Positions 56,401-64,000 of a stretch of DNA of 64,000 bases are shown piece by piece (position 1 is the stretch's first letter; every line of letters begins with the position of its first letter). The notes under the pieces were generated by a model. The model was given only the letters and a program-made list of their open reading frames with translations, was not told where the DNA came from and did not search any database. The stretch is taken from NCBI GenBank assembly GCA_045127455.1, contig JBGVQK010000074.1:6431-70430 (forward strand), given 5' to 3'. This DNA comes from Eubacteriales bacterium (GTDB taxonomy: Bacteria; Bacillota; Clostridia; Oscillospirales; CAG-272). The position numbers were made by a program, and so were the translations under genes.

Positions 56401-59400
56401 TTAAAATCTTCTTTTTCTTTTGAACAGAGTATAGGTTATAAAGCCAATTGCTCCAACTACAACAGCAGAACCGATCACGAGTGCGGCAATTGCGCCCGCA
56501 CCGAGGGGCGGGTTTGCGGTGTTTTGCGCGGGAGGGTCTGAAGGATCTGCGGGAACGGAAGGTTCGGAAGGAATAGCAGGCTCATCCACAGGAGGTGTGG
56601 TTGGCTCATTCTTTTCAATTGCAATGCTTTGTATATCGGAGGGAGTAGTTACAGATGTGCCGATATCCTTGATCAAAATTTCGGTTGCTTTAACTTCTTC
56701 AAGGCCGATCAACACACTCGTACCGCCTGCAAAGGTCCAGGTTTTACCGCCATCAAGCGAGTATTGCATCGTATTGCTCACACCTGTCAGCCAACCGCTC
56801 GTTTTGTCAAGAACTGCCGCAGGGGTCAAAGCCTTGGGTAGATCGGCAGTCGTTATCTTGCCCGACGTGGTGTAATAAAGCGTTGCAATATCAAACACGC
56901 GCACATGCGTTTCGTTTCCGTGCATCAAAAATACGCTTCTGCCATAAAAAGCCACGCTTGGCCAAGGAGTGGGATAATCACAGTCTACCAAACTGCGAAG
57001 ATTGTGGTAACTCAATCCGTCATCCGCGGTGAGAATTACCGTCAAGGGGCGTCTATCAACACCACTTACAGAAAAATCGTTATTCCAAAAGAGCGCAATA
57101 TCACCCGTTGCAGGCAAGCGCATAACGGTATTGGTCGCACTTGGAGACTGTATTTCGGTTTTGGTAGGTTGCGCCCAAGTCAAGCCGCCGTCGGTGGAAA
57201 TTGATTGGTAAATAACACGTTCCTCGCGCGTACGCAAAGAAAGCAAAATATTTCCGTTTTGGAGCTCTGCCACAGAGGGCTCAAGAGCTGCGTGTGGGAG
57301 AGTAAGAGCATCGAGTGAGCGGTTCCAAGTCTTTCCTTCATCATCTGAATACCAAACGTAACCGATAGCACGGTCAGAACCGTAAACGTCATTCAAGGTT
57401 GCAGAATACCCAACCGGCAACAAAATGCGACCGGTGGAAAGACGCAGGACGCGATGTCCGCTGGAGAGAATTGAGTACCCCTGAGGAGCATCGGTAATGC
57501 GTTGGGGTTCACCCCAAGTGATTCCGTTATCGGTAGAACGACGAATGTAAATGTTAGCAATCTCTTTTGCTTCTTTTTCAATGTAGATAAGACCCAATTC
57601 ACCGTCCGCAAGCCAAATGTAGGTCGGGTTGAGTACGTTAAGACTGTTTTCGTTTTTGATCAAAAAGCTTTTGCCGTCACTCCATGTGTAGCCGCCGTCT
57701 GTCGAGGTAAAAGCATCCAACGAGGAATCGGATGCGTCACCGCCGCCCGAGGTGCCAACCTTGGAGGCAAATCCGTTATAAGATGCTACAAGCGTGCCGT
57801 CCGGCATTACGTAAAAGTCACCGTCAGCGCCTCTATCGGTCGATTGCATCACGTGTCCTGTGCGTACCTCTTGAGAGGAGTACGCCGAAAGACCATCTGC
57901 AAGACTCGCAAGGGAAATATTAACGTTGCCCAACGCGTGCAGTTTAAGATAACCGCATTGAATGCTATCAAATGTTAGGCGCCAAGTTTTTTCTCCGCGG
58001 CTGAGGGTTACGTTCTCAATTTTTGCATAGGTAACGTTATCGTTGCTGTAGTAAAGTGCAAACGCATCTTTGTTAAGCTCGGTAAGACCGTTGCCCGAGA
58101 GCTCAATGGCCTCGACCTGTGAGTGAATGCCAAACCAAACGCCAATGCTATCTCCCTTTGCAATCGTCAGAGGTTTTTGTACAAACACCTGTGCCATTGG
58201 TGTGGTAACAGGGAAGGCATCATTCAAAGCCACCATCGGTGTGCTTGCCATCTTCCATTGACGAGCAATGCGGCGCTCTGCGCGAATGCAAGAGGTGAGA
58301 TCAGCGAGATGAATACTGCCGGTTTCCTCGTTTTGATTTGTGTTAACTTTGATATAACGGGCAGATATACCAGAGAATTCAAATAGCACTTGACATTTGC
58401 CATCCTCGCAGATGCGATTGAAGTGGAATCCTTTGATCTCTGCCCAGGTTTTATTGTCGTTGCTCTGCCAAAGCGTAAAGTGATTGGCGCGAGATGTGAC
58501 GTTATCGTCACTATCGTAGATGCGAATGGCATTGATGATTTGCGCTTCTCCAAGATCAACACCAATGCTATTGAGGTTTGCATCTGCGTAGGCATCCTCG
58601 GTGTAGGGTTCCATTACTCCGGTAGAAGGATCATTGTCAAGGGGGCGGTAAAGGGGAGTAGAAGCAATTACTTCGGGAACGTATACTACGGGTGCACTTT
58701 CCGTACGAGAAGGCATTTGTATGATGCCATCAGAAGCATCCGACCACACATTGCTGATGGAAACGTTGCCCGCCGTCTCAAATCGTATAGCAGTAAGCGT
58801 AGAGCAGGGATTTGTATAAATAGCCATACCAACATAGGTGTTGTTTACGTATACACGTGCATAATCAACGTTACGTGCATCCGGTAAATCTATAACGATT
58901 TGCAAGGCGTCATTTGGGCGAACTGCACCTCGGGCACTGAATGGAATCCATCTGTCATCACGCCCATAGCAAAGGGTGCCATCCTCTTTGGCAGCAATAT
59001 AAAAGCTGTATGTGTTGCCTGACATTAAAGCAAATTTGAAATCTGAAAGATTGGAGATTGTAGCGGTAAAACCAAATTTTCCACTGTTGCAAGCAACTAC
59101 GGGATAGTCTGTAACACTTGCAGGTCCAATAACCTTTACATTGTCGATTAAAAAAACGTCGTTGATGCTTGCCTTATTGTTGGTGTGGAAAACAACGCGA
59201 TCAACCTTTGCAATGTTCTTATCTGCCCAAACAGAGCAAAGTTTTGTGCCGTTCAAATAGAGATCAGCCGACTCAGAATTGGCATTGGTAACGATTTTGA
59301 AGGTGTACCAAGTCTCTTTTAAAATATCGGTTTTGGGAGTTGCGATCCATTTCTTTTGCGTTTTGTGATAGTATTTCAGCGTTGCTGTATCGCCATCACC

Positions 59401-59817
59401 GTTGGGGAAGATGCCAAGGTTGACACGCTTTTGATTGGTGGCTATACCATCCTTGGAAAGTGCAAAGGCATTCGCTCCCGCAACACTTTCTAAATAATAA
59501 TCAAAGCAGATCTCTATGTCAGCGGTTGCCGCAAAGGTTTTTTGAGCAATAGTGGGGTTTTGATATTCGCTTGAATTATCCTCAATACGCATAGCGTTAC
59601 CTCCTTGTGAGTTTTTAGGAGCAGGTACTACTTTGACGCCGGCATCGGTGCGGCCAATTGGTTCAACTTCCCAACCGTAGGGTTCTTGATCGTGCACCAT
59701 ATTGTCAAAATCTTCATCGATAGCAGCAGGAATACCGTCAGCAAATACTGTTGGAAATCCTCCGGAGATGATACAAAGCACCAATATTAGTGTCAAAGGT
59801 TTTATACATCGTTTCAT
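56401..59817 (-). CDS. Large surface BNR/Asp-box (sialidase-like) protein with lectin-like modules and C-terminal TM anchor
   Basis: Signal peptide; Asp boxes STDGGYTW, STDNGITW, SDDEGKTW, STDGGLTW; F5/8-like VDLGE..WQSNDNKTW; Pro-rich linker, TM, KRKRR. Confidence 0.82.
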   Translation of the reverse strand: MKRCIKPLTLILVLCIISGGFPTVFADGIPAAIDEDFDNMVHDQEPYGWEVEPIGRTDAGVKVVPAPKNSQGGNAMRIEDNSSEYQNPTIAQKTFAATADIEICFDYYLESVAGANAFALSKDGIATNQKRVNLGIFPNGDGDTATLKYYHKTQKKWIATPKTDILKETWYTFKIVTNANSESADLYLNGTKLCSVWADKNIAKVDRVVFHTNNKASINDVFLIDNVKVIGPASVTDYPVVACNSGKFGFTATISNLSDFKFALMSGNTYSFYIAAKEDGTLCYGRDDRWIPFSARGAVRPNDALQIVIDLPDARNVDYARVYVNNTYVGMAIYTNPCSTLTAIRFETAGNVSISNVWSDASDGIIQMPSRTESAPVVYVPEVIASTPLYRPLDNDPSTGVMEPYTEDAYADANLNSIGVDLGEAQIINAIRIYDSDDNVTSRANHFTLWQSNDNKTWAEIKGFHFNRICEDGKCQVLFEFSGISARYIKVNTNQNEETGSIHLADLTSCIRAERRIARQWKMASTPMVALNDAFPVTTPMAQVFVQKPLTIAKGDSIGVWFGIHSQVEAIELSGNGLTELNKDAFALYYSNDNVTYAKIENVTLSRGEKTWRLTFDSIQCGYLKLHALGNVNISLASLADGLSAYSSQEVRTGHVMQSTDRGADGDFYVMPDGTLVASYNGFASKVGTSGGGDASDSSLDAFTSTDGGYTWSDGKSFLIKNENSLNVLNPTYIWLADGELGLIYIEKEAKEIANIYIRRSTDNGITWGEPQRITDAPQGYSILSSGHRVLRLSTGRILLPVGYSATLNDVYGSDRAIGYVWYSDDEGKTWNRSLDALTLPHAALEPSVAELQNGNILLSLRTREERVIYQSISTDGGLTWAQPTKTEIQSPSATNTVMRLPATGDIALFWNNDFSVSGVDRRPLTVILTADDGLSYHNLRSLVDCDYPTPWPSVAFYGRSVFLMHGNETHVRVFDIATLYYTTSGKITTADLPKALTPAAVLDKTSGWLTGVSNTMQYSLDGGKTWTFAGGTSVLIGLEEVKATEILIKDIGTSVTTPSDIQSIAIEKNEPTTPPVDEPAIPSEPSVPADPSDPPAQNTANPPLGAGAIAALVIGSAVVVGAIGFITYTLFKRKRRF

Positions 59818-59912
59818 TGCGGTTCCTCCCAAAATAAAGTCAAAAATTGAAGCAAAAGATTAGTTGATTTTATTATAGCACATAAAAAGAGAAAAGTAAA
59901 TAGATTATGAGG

Positions 59913-59998
59913 AGAATCTGAACTCAAACGCGTAGAGTTCCATACCGGATTTCCACCATAAAGAAACAGCGGAGCGCATTGCGCTCCGCTTGTGTGTT
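59913..59998. repeat. 86-bp structured direct repeat, copy 1
   Basis: Matches 61540-61625 with 2 mismatches; GAACTC/GAGTTC stem, TCCACCA, hairpin AGCGGAGCGC-ATT-GCGCTCCGCT. Confidence 0.93.
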
Positions 59999-60011
59999 CT
60001 TTGTAATATAA

Positions 60012-61448
60012 TCAAGTTTTTTGGCTTTTAAATTTTTCAAGTTGTTTTTTAATGAATTCGTATGCCGTTTTGTCATCTTTAAACTTATGAAGTTTGTATT
60101 TAACCCAAGAAGTTTGAATAATTATCCGTTTATTATATTCTACTTGAATAATATTTTCATAATCCACATTAAAAGACGTGTTGTATCCGTTGTTTTTTAA
60201 TCTGTTTTCATAAATTTCCAAACATCTTGTTTGTTCATAACCGGATCGTTTGTTTTTGATAAAGCCAATCAAAGCAGCAATCAAAACAATCAATATTGTT
60301 ACTAAAGAAAGGCCGGGTCCCATAATAAAGTAAAAAGCCCATTTCATTTGCGGATTTGAGTACTGGAAGGTGAGCCATAGCCCATTATGAAGAATGAGCA
60401 TAAACATCATACCTTGAAAGAGGGTAATCCATGGATAAGCAGCACTGTATTTGTGAGAATAGAGCAGTTCGCCATAATCAAGCGAATCCTCTGAAAAATC
60501 TTCATCATCACTGAATGGAAATAGATCAAAGAGCAAGCCCTTTTGCTCACACGCTTTCTGAAATTCTTGAATTTTGTTTGTTGTTTTTTTTGAGAGTCTA
60601 AGATTGTTTTCAAATTTGAAAAAGCCGTAAACAATATCTCCGCTCGGCATTAGGCAACGATGAACATTATCCATATTTTCTAAGTATCCCAAGACGCTTC
60701 TTTGTTTAAGATCCAAAATGTTGTTTCCTGCAGGATCAATCTCAACCCATCCATTTTTGCTTTTGATAAGCAATTTATCATTGGAAAAACGATACTCAAA
60801 TTGATTGATATCTATTCTTTTTTCAAACAAGGGTTTAAATTTGATCTGCTTTGCTTTGAGGACTTTCTCATTTTCACAAAACATGGGATCAAAGGAAAAC
60901 TCGACGTATTCATCATCCTTGCGCATATCGCACCAAGAAAAGGTTTCGCCTATAATCAAACTGTTTTCGATAACGTCGTGGCATTTTAGGATGATCAAAG
61001 ATCCACAACTTGTGTCAAGCAGAATCTCGAGAATTCCGTCTTTCTCTTGCATCCCCAAAATATATCCGTCGTGGAATGCCCCTGAATTCATATCAAGAGC
61101 GTCAAGATCGAACGAGGACTTAATTTCCGTGTATTCTTGCGGTTTTGATTGATTCAAAATTGCTTTTGCATCTTGCAGCATTTCCAAACTATACTTTTGA
61201 TTTTTTACTGTTCTAAAAATATTTCTATCATTCCAATAAGACTTGAATTGAACATCATTGATAGCAAAATTTTTAGTATCATAATTCATAAAAAGAGCAG
61301 TATCGTGATTTCGTTTAAAAATATCCACCACGATCAATTTTTCAAACGAACTGTCAAAAACAACAACTTTGTTATTTGTACCTTTCATGGATACGGCAAA
61401 TACAGGCGAATAATAAACGCTGTTGTTATGCAGTATTTTGGCGAACAT
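60012..61448 (-). CDS. AT-rich hypothetical protein with two C-terminal TM helices
   Basis: 478-aa ORF, GAGGAGG RBS, TTGAAA-17-TATACT promoter; bounded by the 86-bp repeats. Confidence 0.8.
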   Translation of the reverse strand: MFAKILHNNSVYYSPVFAVSMKGTNNKVVVFDSSFEKLIVVDIFKRNHDTALFMNYDTKNFAINDVQFKSYWNDRNIFRTVKNQKYSLEMLQDAKAILNQSKPQEYTEIKSSFDLDALDMNSGAFHDGYILGMQEKDGILEILLDTSCGSLIILKCHDVIENSLIIGETFSWCDMRKDDEYVEFSFDPMFCENEKVLKAKQIKFKPLFEKRIDINQFEYRFSNDKLLIKSKNGWVEIDPAGNNILDLKQRSVLGYLENMDNVHRCLMPSGDIVYGFFKFENNLRLSKKTTNKIQEFQKACEQKGLLFDLFPFSDDEDFSEDSLDYGELLYSHKYSAAYPWITLFQGMMFMLILHNGLWLTFQYSNPQMKWAFYFIMGPGLSLVTILIVLIAALIGFIKNKRSGYEQTRCLEIYENRLKNNGYNTSFNVDYENIIQVEYNKRIIIQTSWVKYKLHKFKDDKTAYEFIKKQLEKFKSQKT

Positions 61449-61539
61449 ATATTTTCCACCTCCTCAAATGTTAATTTTAGTATATCATAGTATTGTGGAT
61501 ATTTCAATACTTTTGTTATAAAAAGGGGAGAAGAAGAGA

Positions 61540-61625
61540 AGAATTTGAACTCAAACGCGCAGAGTTCCATACCGGATTTCCACCATAAAGAAACAGCGGA
61601 GCGCATTGCGCTCCGCTTGTGTGTT
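61540..61625. repeat. 86-bp structured direct repeat, copy 2
   Basis: See copy 1; spacing 1627 bp. Confidence 0.93.
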
Positions 61626-61660
61626 TTTGTTATAAATTTTTAAAGATTGGTGGTTGCTGC

Positions 61661-62311
61661 TTATTTTAATTTTCCAAGCTTTGCGGTGTTTGCAATAACG
61701 ATCAGTGAGCTTTCCGCATCAAGCACCTGCTCGGGGTTGATGTTAACGTTAACCTTTTCGCCCTTTTTGATAGCAACGACGTTAAGACCGTACTTTTTAC
61801 GGAGATTTAATTCTATCAAATTCTTTCCGCACCATTCATCTCTCACGTCTATCTCGATCATAGATACACCCTTGGATAGAGATATCATATCAATGAAGCC
61901 GGAGCTAAGCAGATTTTTTGCAAGACGAATACCGGATTCAGTCTCGGGGAACACGACCTGATCTGCGCCTACACGGAGCAATATTTTTTGGTGCATCTCG
62001 TTAGCACATTTTGCTATAACAGTTTTAACACCTACTTCCTTGCAAAGCGTAACTGCCATCACACTCGCCTCAAGATTGCTCGCCATACAAACGATAACAG
62101 TGTCAATATTGCCAATTCCAAGACGCGAAATGACCTCTGCATCTGTCACGTCGGCACACTTGCAAACGGGCAGATATGCCGCTGCATCGTTTACGATTCT
62201 TTCTTCGGCATCAACAGCGATGACCTCCATGCCGTTCTCCACAAGCTCTTTTGCCACAGCTGTTCCGTATCTTCCAAGTCCAAAGACTGCATAAGTTTTC
62301 TTTTTTTTCAT
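61661..62311 (-). CDS. ktrA: TrkA/KtrA family potassium-uptake regulatory subunit
   Basis: GLGRYG Rossmann motif, GADQVVFPE, RCK_C GKNLIELNLRKKYGLNV. Confidence 0.85.
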   Translation of the reverse strand: MKKKKTYAVFGLGRYGTAVAKELVENGMEVIAVDAEERIVNDAAAYLPVCKCADVTDAEVISRLGIGNIDTVIVCMASNLEASVMAVTLCKEVGVKTVIAKCANEMHQKILLRVGADQVVFPETESGIRLAKNLLSSGFIDMISLSKGVSMIEIDVRDEWCGKNLIELNLRKKYGLNVVAIKKGEKVNVNINPEQVLDAESSLIVIANTAKLGKLK

Positions 62312-62322
62312 TGTTTTTCTCC

Positions 62323-63684
62323 TTATCCTATACTGATATCTTCCGTTGGCTCGGAAATGACGTTTTGACTTTCGTTTTTACTGCCGAGTGCCACCGCAAG
62401 CGAAATGGGACCGACTCTGCCAAGATACATAGTTACTATGATGATCAGTTTTCCAAACGTGTTCAGGGTTGCCGTCAGGTTTCTTGAAAGACCAACGGTT
62501 GCAGTTGCACTGACTGTTTCATAAACTGCATCAATGGCAGAGGCGTCGCTTGTTGCCATCAAAAGCAGGGTTGCAGCGGCGCATATAGCAAGAAACGTTG
62601 TTGTTACAGCAACCGCCTTTTTCAGTGATCCCTCCGAAATGCGGCGACCGAATATGGTTGCGTTTTTCTTATTGCGAATAGTAGCAAATGCCGAGCAGAT
62701 AATGACGGCAGCAGTTACGGTCTTCATACCTCCTGCCGTTCCTACGGGGGAACCACCGATCATCATTAAAAGAATTGATACGGCGGCAGAGGCATTTGTC
62801 AGGTTTTCCTGCGGAACGGAAGCAAAGCCCGCGGTTCTCGTTGTAACCGATTGAAAAAAGGACACCTGAATTTTATCAAAAAGGGACATCTCACCAATGG
62901 TCAAGGGGTTTGTGTATTCAAAAACAAATATGAGAATTGCACCAACGAGAATGAGCCCTGCCGTAACAGTTATTGCAATTTTTGAGTGCAAGGTTAGATG
63001 CTTGAAAATTTTGCGGTTCTTTTTTGAACGAGTTTTCATAACACGAAGCACATCCCACCACACAATATAACCGAGGCCACCGAGAATGATGAGTGCTGAT
63101 GTAACAATATTGATCAGGGGATTGGTGGCATAATTGCAAAGGCTGTTTTCTGCAATAATGTCGATGCCTGCGTTGCAAAAGGCGGAAACTGAATTGAATA
63201 CCGATATCCAAATGCCCTTAACACCAAATTCGGGAACGAAAACGAGCATATACAAAATAGCACCTATTGCTTCAATGATCAATGTACCAAACAGTACGTT
63301 TTTTACGAATTTTGCAAGTCCCGACATCGTATTCAAGTTAAAAGCATCCTGAATGAGCAATCGGTCACCAATGCCCATCTTTTTATTCAAAAGAAGCATT
63401 AGTCCTGACATGATGGTTATGATGCCAAGACCGCCGATTTGTATCAAGATCAGTATAACGATCTGCCCAAACGCACTCCACGTAGACACCGTAGGTAGGG
63501 TGACAAGGCCCGTTACACACGTGGATGTTGTCGCTGTAAAGAGCGCATCAAGATAAGGCACAGCCATTCCCGTAGCGGAGCTTATCGGTAATGCCAACAG
63601 CACACTTCCCACAAGAATGGTTACGAGAAAGCTGAGCAATATGATCTGCGTGGTCGTAAATTTCAATCTCTTTTTTCTAACCAT
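62323..63684 (-). CDS. ktrB: TrkH/KtrB family potassium-uptake membrane subunit
   Basis: TCVTGL, SAFCNAG, TTRTAGF, SATATVGLS. Confidence 0.87.
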   Translation of the reverse strand: MVRKKRLKFTTTQIILLSFLVTILVGSVLLALPISSATGMAVPYLDALFTATTSTCVTGLVTLPTVSTWSAFGQIVILILIQIGGLGIITIMSGLMLLLNKKMGIGDRLLIQDAFNLNTMSGLAKFVKNVLFGTLIIEAIGAILYMLVFVPEFGVKGIWISVFNSVSAFCNAGIDIIAENSLCNYATNPLINIVTSALIILGGLGYIVWWDVLRVMKTRSKKNRKIFKHLTLHSKIAITVTAGLILVGAILIFVFEYTNPLTIGEMSLFDKIQVSFFQSVTTRTAGFASVPQENLTNASAAVSILLMMIGGSPVGTAGGMKTVTAAVIICSAFATIRNKKNATIFGRRISEGSLKKAVAVTTTFLAICAAATLLLMATSDASAIDAVYETVSATATVGLSRNLTATLNTFGKLIIIVTMYLGRVGPISLAVALGSKNESQNVISEPTEDISIG

Positions 63685-63762
63685 AAGACTTTCCTCAAAT
63701 AAGCATAAAGGAACCAACGTTCTCTGCAGTCAGCTGGTTCCATAATAATTATCGTTTGTATA

Positions 63763-63791
63763 ATTATAACACATTCAGCCACTTATGTCAA
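63763..63791 (-). promoter_or_regulatory. sigmaA promoter of ktrBA
   Basis: TTGACA-17-TATAAT with TG extension. Confidence 0.8.
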
Positions 63792-63863
63792 TATGTTTTT
63801 TACGAGAAACATAATTTATAAGTCATATTTCCCCCTACGCAAAAAAGTGCAGAGTCCAATATC

Positions 63864-63969
63864 GAGGAGAATCAGAACTCAAACGCGCATCAAATGCAGC
63901 AAAAGATGAAACACACAGTGGCGCGTTATGCTCATTTTGCAAGCAAAATGAGCAGGAGTTGATACCGTA
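63864..63969. repeat. Longer variant (copy 3) of the repeat's left half
   Basis: GAGGAGAATCAGAACTCAAACGCGCA..(two internal hairpins)..GAGTTGATACCG versus copy 1 GAGGAGAATCTGAACTCAAACGCGTA-GAGTTCCATACCG. Confidence 0.7.
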
Positions 63970-64000
63970 ATTTTCAAGCGATAAAAGCCAAAGGGGTTGC

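Follow-up and report, generated by a model that had tools for sequence, protein, structure and literature searches.

A probable integrase-less array accreted at the tmRNA gene of a Clostridia metagenome-assembled genome, built from structured miniature elements that match their target genes

The stretch of DNA analysed here (the window, 64,000 nt) corresponds to positions 6431-70430 of contig C74 (JBGVQK010000074.1) of G000, a metagenome-assembled genome of a Eubacteriales bacterium (Oscillospirales, CAG-272; GCA_045127455.1) with 95 contigs, 2.1 Mb and 95% completeness. At its right end, three repeats separate accessory genes downstream of ssrA, the gene for transfer-messenger RNA (tmRNA), and the arrangement is probably an integrase-less array accreted at ssrA, of the ssrA-island or cis-mobilizable kind, whose building block would be a miniature element, referred to as R1, that has apparently not been described before. 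Island arrays at ssrA and tRNA genes and cis-mobilizable islets are an already known kind; the miniature, structured and target-matched unit itself appears to be undescribed, as nothing like it was found in Rfam or in the literature searched, which was not exhaustive. The three repeats would be att-like ends of lineage-specific miniature integrative elements targeting the T-loop of tRNA and tmRNA genes. The features concerned, in window numbering, are the following.

59902..60001, minus strand: repeat copy 1, the farthest from ssrA; in the ssrA sense a terminator hairpin, an inverted 12-nt copy of the tmRNA tail and an att-like core
59909..59925, minus strand: core of copy 1, GAGTTC-A-GATTCTCCTC, corresponding to T-loop and T-stem of the tmRNA plus one additional base; 0 mismatches to GAGTTCWGATTCTCCTC
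59951..59962 and again 61578-61589, plus strand: TTCCACCATAAA, which repeats the final 8 nt of the tmRNA and 4 flanking nt in inverted orientation, as read from the sequence
59968..59990, either strand: 10-bp, G+C-rich hairpin in copy 1, terminator-like on both strands, which ends orf478
61529..61628, minus strand: repeat copy 2, with a degenerate core at 61536-61552 (GAGTTCAAATTCTTCTC)
63860..63973, minus strand: copy 3, a full-length three-helix R1 element with its core at 63864-63880 (90.5 bits, E 5.6e-21)
63983..64000, either strand: left arm of the hairpin that separates ssrA from copy 3, a bidirectional terminator; it continues beyond the window end
64023-64414 (window-equivalent of C74:70453-70844), minus strand: ssrA (Rfam tmRNA, 152.7 bits; tag peptide DNNSVAMAA)

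Contig C74 extends 1.7 kb beyond the window, and the 3′ end of ssrA lies there, 23 nt past the last window base and 49 nt from copy 3. In its own reading direction ssrA is followed, in this order, by a bidirectional terminator hairpin, copy 3, ktrBA, copy 2, orf478, copy 1 and a sialidase-like gene, with all three cores in direct orientation. Read in this sense, all copies end with GAGTTC-W-GATTCTCCTC, which reproduces the T-loop and 3′ T-stem of the tmRNA (GGAGTTCGATTCTCCTC) and adds one base; this 17-nt T-arm copy was present in the three window copies with 0, 0 and 3 mismatches, always with the extra base and without the acceptor end. The genes behind ssrA differed in all five relatives compared. 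An initial annotation, made from the window alone, had stated that it contains no integrase or tRNA gene, which holds, and had pointed to the sequence past 64000, where inspection gave ssrA and, over all of C74, no recombinase.

Copies 1 and 2 (59902-60001 and 61529-61628) are direct repeats 1627 nt apart and 93/100 identical. The same annotation had described them as an 86-bp repeat at 59913 and 61540 with two mismatches, which was borne out by eye for 59913-59998, and had noticed a third, left-half variant at 63864, where the 24-nt core of copies 1 and 2 indeed recurs (63864-63887, 23/24 identical). Identity between copies 1 and 2 was 81/83 from the hairpin side through GAGTTC-W and then 12/17, and this fall coincides with the T-loop junction of the R1 family described below. 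The 10-bp terminating hairpin that had been predicted was found in both long copies (59968-59990 and 61595-61617), with eight G-C pairs each and T-rich tails on both strands, and was their sole stable fold; the GAACTC..GAGTTC stem proposed beside it folded no better than shuffles (z -1.6, -0.3 and -1.0). Copy 3 folded stably on both strands (z -4.4 and -4.2). As for the proposed tRNA-like 3′ end, the repeats are related to the tmRNA 3′ end as had been supposed, but the tail that had been named, TTCCACCATAAA, is the inverted copy, and the att-like part is the left end of the repeat, GAGGAGAATCWGAACTC, a tmRNA-derived direct repeat that is the reverse complement of the tmRNA T-arm.

Within the R1 family, copies 1 and 2 are derivatives peculiar to this species, shortened and fused to a terminator hairpin. 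Copy 1 gave a weak R1 match (C74:66335-66382, 17.4 bits, E 0.5), the remainder of both copies consists of a private hairpin and the inverted tmRNA-tail fragment, and both look decayed. Truncated cores like theirs follow full copies within 21-42 nt at ssrA in three relatives (G029, G003 and G076) and at tRNA-Lys in G000. The long variant formed by copies 1 and 2 was found in none of 77 congeners, the set in which orf478 was also searched for. An inverted copy of the local acceptor end directly after the hairpin, as in copies 1 and 2, was also observed in G000 at tRNA-Gly (C75:4667-4960) and tRNA-Glu (C83:11395-11600), where it forms a long palindrome with the tRNA tail.

The genome-wide repeat search suggested in the initial annotation proved productive. 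The 22-nt core occurred seven times in G000 at four or fewer mismatches, and the copies outside the window adjoin tRNA-Glu(ttc) and tRNA-Lys(ttt), each with the T-stem variant of its own tRNA. Downstream of ssrA, tRNA-Glu and tRNA-Lys the copy measures about 115 nt and folds as a three-way junction on either strand (z about -4.3), with helices P1, P3 and P2, and from these three copies the R1 covariance model was built. It found six full copies in G000, all of them 42-54 nt 3′ of the end of the gene for the tmRNA or for a tRNA (Lys, Glu, Val(cac), Arg(acg) and His) and in one relative orientation, antisense in model terms. Relatives were surveyed with the same model in 36 genomes of the same genus, 24 genomes of other families of the order and 150 other genomes of the family. 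R1 was present in 27 of the 36 congeners (1-13 copies each), in 0/24 from the other families and in 3/150 within the family, from two genera; four of the nine congeners that lack it are at least 90% complete. In R1-negative congeners tRNA-Lys was followed by a plain terminator and no insert at all four loci with downstream sequence, a fifth locus, in G023, giving none.

From 29 genomes 34 loci holding 46 copies were fetched. A tRNA or tmRNA gene stood at the expected place in 23, and a contig end lay on that side in 8 of the other 11; at L036 a large serine recombinase gene occupies the expected place of the tRNA, and at L023 and L045 there are 235-545 nt without a tRNA and then a contig end. 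Tandem arrays of 2-3 units at a spacing of 130-180 nt were common. Partial R1 matches without P1 were checked as possible autonomous elements: those in G029 and G032, like the core matches in G019 and G092, lay at a contig end or no more than about 150 nt from one, the one in G003 about 1 kb from a contig end and the one in G014 mid-contig. L024 (G025:C7:9003-10632) was the sole locus in which tRNA-Lys abuts the core end of the element in the opposite arrangement, 8 nt from the contig end, and may be a product of misassembly or of tRNA genes in convergent orientation. The flank of a young element copy, used as a query, matched another dispersed repeat; a second dispersed palindromic repeat (a terminator, then CTTCTTCACTCTTCAC... 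and its inverse) was seen after tRNA arrays at many sites in 26 of the 77 congeners, as at L047:700-830, L088, L077 and L094.

The anatomy of the unit was read from young copies, exemplified by the tRNA-Ala(cgc) locus of G036 with its two identical 159-nt units. The normal tRNA end is followed by a terminator hairpin, a short spacer, a segment complementary to the T-loop region (the proximal strand of P1), P3, P2 with a large loop, and then NNGTTC-W-GAxTC, which continues as an exact copy of the tRNA tail to CCA; after this tail copy comes the hairpin of the next unit or a different terminator, presumably the native one. The distal end thus copies the tail of the local gene, up to CCA in the young copies L047, L043, L038, L041, L032 and L046, and at Lys, Glu, Arg, Val, His, Ala, Gly and tmRNA loci alike the match starts from one and the same point of the T-loop. 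The extra W precedes the junction in 45 of the 46 copies, L034 being without it, and the junction directly precedes the GA or AA of the T-loop. Behind tRNA-Thr, Gly, Ser, Pro and Leu, inserts with unrelated bodies are arranged in the same way, at offsets of +1, +2 (GT) or other, and about 11 of the 39 tRNA/tmRNA loci of G000, roughly a quarter, carry an insert of this plan. Behind tRNA-Thr(cgt), at G000:C7:17223-17477, two units with an unrelated body stand in tandem, the first tail repeat without an extra base and the second with +1 (T).

Covariation was assessed over the 46 copies in an alignment that had been fitted to the R1 model, which favours the structure: 95.0% of 1269 cells were paired and 23 of 30 pairs varied on both sides, values attained by 0 of 500 shuffles and nowhere approached by slid registers. 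In this fitted alignment the mismatch types G-U and A-C were equally rare (29 and 25 of the 1269 cells); since A-C is G-U on the opposite strand, there is no sign of a single transcribed strand, and this points to DNA-level hairpins or palindromes. P1 tracks the local tRNA, and the P2/P3 bodies at different tRNAs within one genome are near relatives, the nearest body to that of G000 tRNA-Val being that of G000 tRNA-Lys (0.74 identity). At the orthologous tRNA-Lys loci of five species all helices are kept through compensatory changes, and loops and flanks diverge. An antisense small RNA was considered and rejected, because in tandem arrays the element abuts the terminator of the next unit and a promoter has no room. 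When the window end and three tRNA loci were scanned with the covariance models of Rfam 15, none but those for tmRNA and tRNAs passed, so that the element falls in no family; matches to caiA RNA (E 0.63), RefA9 and CRISPR-DR6 were far below cut-off and were taken as chance. The caiA RNA match lies in the 5′ leader of orf478 (61446-61521), reached 24.7 bits against a cut-off of 55.5 and is probably chance.

In three congeners near-identical element pairs (97-100%) bracket accessory cargo. At tRNA-Glu of G022 a pair about 97% identical encloses 3.8 kb with five small genes, including those for 23S-IVP-like and HTH proteins, and a recombinase C-terminus (DUF4368) lies about 100 nt outside the outer repeat; at tRNA-Ser of G018 copies 100% identical flank a 9.6 kb cluster of carbohydrate-active enzyme (CAZyme) genes (ROK, GH2, SIS, GH28 and GDSL); in G008 the cargo is 2.2 kb with an N6/N4 DNA methylase gene and one further open reading frame. 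A decayed tRNA-tail remnant without the extra base precedes the outer unit in G022 and G008, which is what successive integrations at one target would leave.

In the proposed mechanism a full unit, read in the sense of its target gene, would comprise the target 3′ end (mid T-loop to CCA), its own terminator hairpin, the three-helix body of about 115 nt and NNGTTC with the extra base, and the original target 3′ end would be displaced to beyond the unit, which would put the junction just before the GA or AA of the T-loop. Three head-to-tail units would then stand behind ssrA, namely an empty full unit (copy 3), a ktrBA unit ending in copy 2 and an orf478 unit ending in copy 1, with copies 1 and 2 as truncated recent duplicates that would now act mainly as terminators. 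That the junctions were made by a site-specific recombinase, and the order of these events, we infer from the arrangement of the copies. DUF4368-type large serine recombinases acting in trans are the candidate enzymes: genes of this type abut element cores at C52 of G000, at G022:C95 and at G033:C2, the one at C52 (16113-17603) being on the reverse strand, 0.5 kb past the tRNA-Val element. The recombinase islands at tRNA-Val (C52) and tRNA-Glu (G022:C95) run into contig ends in these assemblies, so that their far ends are missing. Large serine recombinases of the TnpX/TndX type cross over at a GA dinucleotide, which may connect enzymes of that type with the junction at GA. G000 gave ten large serine recombinase matches in its 2.1 Mb, several of them beside tRNA genes or 45-nt tRNA-tail repeats (C35, C52 and C85).

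Several observations weigh against this interpretation. None of the 8 PF00589 and none of the 10 PF07508 matches of the genome lies on C74, and the adjacency of serine recombinase genes at 3 of about 37 loci, where about 0.6 would be expected by chance on a rough estimate, is only suggestive. The robust alignment of copies 1 and 2 to the full element spans just about 25 nt (the end of P2 and the core), and their short variant is, among the 77 congeners searched, confined to this species, the others giving matches to the 22-27-nt core region alone, in 11 genomes. After their cores copies 3, 2 and 1 run on as GATATTGG, TTCTTCTC and ATAATC, not as the tmRNA acceptor ACTTCCACCA that a simple canonical integration history would predict; units 1 and 2 lack the acceptor end, and therefore direct integration into ssrA could not have restored a working tmRNA. 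The view of the initial annotation that the repeats are scars of a gene-stacking, tRNA-targeted system stands in part, through the direct orientation behind ssrA, the family of local-tail copies, the drop in identity at the junction, the pairs round cargo and the foreign, rare orf478 module, and is weakened where these acceptor tails are missing. The canonical tyrosine-integrase islands of G000 have perfect repeats of 31-45 nt and no extra base, and other element types have +2 (GT) or another offset, so that the extra base is left unexplained. In G018 the duplicated block continues past the junction into the next terminator, which fits homologous (Campbell-type) as well as site-specific recombination. 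In four metagenome runs no joint skipping 1627 or 2328 nt, the lengths of the orf478 and ktrBA units, was seen; the contigs of these runs stop inside the repeats and cannot bridge them, and are therefore silent on whether an excised or deleted form exists.

Repeat-mediated homologous recombination alone, in which dispersed repeats would have gained cargo by Campbell-type or unequal crossover and no site-specific enzyme would have acted at the T-loop junction here, would account for several of these points. It agrees with the near-identity of flanking copies over their full length (93/100 here, about 97% in G022, 100% in G018 including sequence beyond the junction), with the missing tmRNA acceptor end, and with the frequent rearrangement indicated by ktrBA and ssrA neighbourhoods that differ in every congener checked. 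We nevertheless regard it as unlikely, because it leaves unexplained the local tRNA tail at each unit end, with the same T-loop start at many tRNA genes, and the drop in identity between copies 1 and 2 at that same T-loop position. Alternatively, R1 could be a cellular structured element tied to tRNA expression (a 3′-trailer RNA, a terminator or insulator, or a protein-binding DNA structure) that is selected by the host, with the window copies as incidental duplicates. The compensatory changes at the tRNA-Lys loci of five species, the fixed position and orientation relative to the tRNA, and possible transcription of the element by read-through from the tRNA promoter speak for such a role. It is made distinctly unlikely by the equal rarity of the two mismatch types, the terminator that precedes each unit, the lack of an Rfam match, and the absence of R1 from 9/36 congeners and from nearly all other genera of the family; moreover, the occurrence of tandem arrays, of truncated copies and of copy numbers that differ at one locus resembles the dynamics of selfish elements.

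An assembly artefact or chance similarity might be suspected in a metagenome-assembled genome of 95 contigs whose element copies often lie at contig ends. The window stretch or part of it was present in 20 metagenome runs of 11 studies, the animal-labelled ones being from bovine or goat gut. In the four runs mentioned above, from four studies, contigs cover all three segments (sialidase-like gene to copy 1, copy 1-orf478-copy 2, and copy 2 to ktrA), with consistent depth in three of the runs, and the family is present in 27 congener assemblies, which makes this explanation extremely improbable. A single joint, X11, connects 59929 with 63864 across 21 other letters and has 22 letters on its shorter side; it matches the adjacent-core arrangement of G029, G003 and G076 and probably comes from a relative.

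The initial annotation had likened the array to integrons. In integron attC sites and in the folded single-strand attP of CTX phage it is the structure that is conserved, not the sequence, and the attC boxes read RYYYAAC (R'') and GTTRRRY (R'). The corresponding window stretches, TCTGAAC and GTTCCAT by inspection, do not fit this consensus, the units have promoter-like sites of their own where integron cassettes are mostly promoterless, and no tyrosine recombinase or other integrase is present on C74; the analogy is topological only. The likeness to attC and CTX attP lies in an imperfect long-range helix with one extrahelical base, in the site at the 3′ end of a gene unit, and in P1, which mimics the target duplex. 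The folded element could accordingly be a single-strand attachment site, in which P1 would pair the anti-T-loop segment with the T-loop copy and rebuild the T-arm duplex of the target with one extrahelical base. We consider this quite unlikely. Unlike integron and CTX systems, the array shows no IntI, attI, Pc, R-box consensus or Xer/dif-like site, and single-strand recombination would be pure conjecture here.

The closest parallel was found in the ssrA islands of Dehalococcoides (PMC3146451), which lie in tandem downstream of ssrA, have a direct repeat that starts mid T-loop and a conserved non-ssrA motif just upstream of each repeat, and carry a CcrB-like serine recombinase gene adjoining attL, many of them having no integration module and being read as cis-mobilizable. 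The reverse-strand large serine recombinase by attL gives the same layout as at C52 of G000 and at G022:C95. Unlike in those islands, the window repeat continues for just 10-11 nt after the junction and has one extra base before it, R1 elements are used at many tRNA genes besides ssrA, three conserved helices make up the upstream arm, and the array itself has no recombinase. With the tRNA and tmRNA islands defined by Islander (PMC4383910), the units share a split target restored by the island and a displaced gene fragment that marks the far end; unlike the units, those islands carry an integrase and span kilobases. Cis-mobilizable elements and the accretion arrays of integrative conjugative and integrative mobilizable elements, named in PMC3146451 and exemplified in Streptococcus, likewise consist of integrase-less segments between att sites that are stacked at a single target and may be mobilised in trans, while the att sites of the window are putative and its copies 1 and 2 look decayed. 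Bacterial miniature inverted-repeat transposable elements and REP elements are short, multi-copy, foldable and non-coding and often double as terminators, and R1 resembles them in all these respects; unlike them, it occurs strictly behind tRNA and tmRNA genes, has a target-matched end and shows neither terminal inverted repeats with a transposase-type target-site duplication nor an associated Y1 (HUH) transposase, PF01797 giving 0 matches in the 95%-complete genome. This lack of a Y1 transposase also speaks against palindrome-associated elements of the IS200/IS605 type.

The open reading frames of the array are ktrA, ktrB and orf478, which together with the flanking gene are located as follows.

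56401..59832, minus strand: sialidase-like gene with BNR and F5/8 type C domains, flanking the array
60012..61448, minus strand: orf478, an AT-rich orphan gene of unknown function and no family, the cargo of the 1627-nt unit
61661-62311, minus strand: ktrA, forming with ktrB a potassium-uptake module (61661..63717)
62323-63717, minus strand: ktrB, of the same module, which has a promoter of its own and, in the leader, a conserved hairpin

Minus-strand promoter-like sites were found upstream of all three units, as the initial annotation had proposed: a perfect TTGACA-17-TATAAT (12/12 consensus, with TG) for ktrBA at 63791-63763, and sites with 10/12 and TG for orf478 at 61507-61479 and for the sialidase-like gene at 59900-59872, the last abutting copy 1. 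The scan gave 17 such sites against 11.3 +/- 3.5 in shuffles, and single sites are therefore weak evidence.

The orf478 module is compositionally foreign and rare. Its G+C content is 30-38% against 42-50% in the flanks, no family was found in Pfam, PADLOC or the protein atlas, and one of the 77 congeners, G086, has a homologue, 54% identical and 275 nt behind tRNA-Leu(gag), with no repeat of the tRNA-Leu(gag) tail within 10 kb of it; a search for related loci gave two weak partial matches and nothing else. The ktrBA module is native-like in G+C content; its whole length between promoter and stop codon is conserved in congeners, where KtrB identity reaches 90%. In the nine closest genomes it is never on the ssrA contig, and its flanks are different in each; gene order behind ssrA and around ktrBA differed in all species-level relatives checked. 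The native ktrA terminator, common to four of five relatives' loci, is replaced in G000 by the hairpin of copy 2, about 50 nt or less from the stop codon. G063 has two ktrBA copies (C132 and C156) with KtrB 90% and 89% identical to that of the window, the second with an in-frame TAG. Between the promoter and the start codon of ktrB a 32-nt minus-strand hairpin (63710-63741, GGAACCAGCTGACTGCAGAGAACGTTGGTTCC) is kept in all six ktrBA loci of five species and may be a regulatory leader; an Rfam scan gave no riboswitch there.

Islands at tRNA and tmRNA genes are textbook knowledge and usually comprise kilobases with their own integrase, and the units described here would apply the same logic at a miniature scale of about 160 nt. 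Accessory modules bracketed in this way occur in at least four species and concern potassium uptake, an orphan membrane protein, a CAZyme cluster and a DNA methylase, and the units also explain assembly breaks behind tRNA genes in these genomes. Should the folded-site reading be true, the element would be a programmable att site read by structure, through which one recombinase family could add single genes or short operons downstream of any tRNA or tmRNA gene; in function this would be a cassette system of the integron type that lacks the integron platform. If the units are mobilised in trans, they would allow a cheap shuffling of single genes in rumen Clostridia and would be a source of compact, retargetable att sites.

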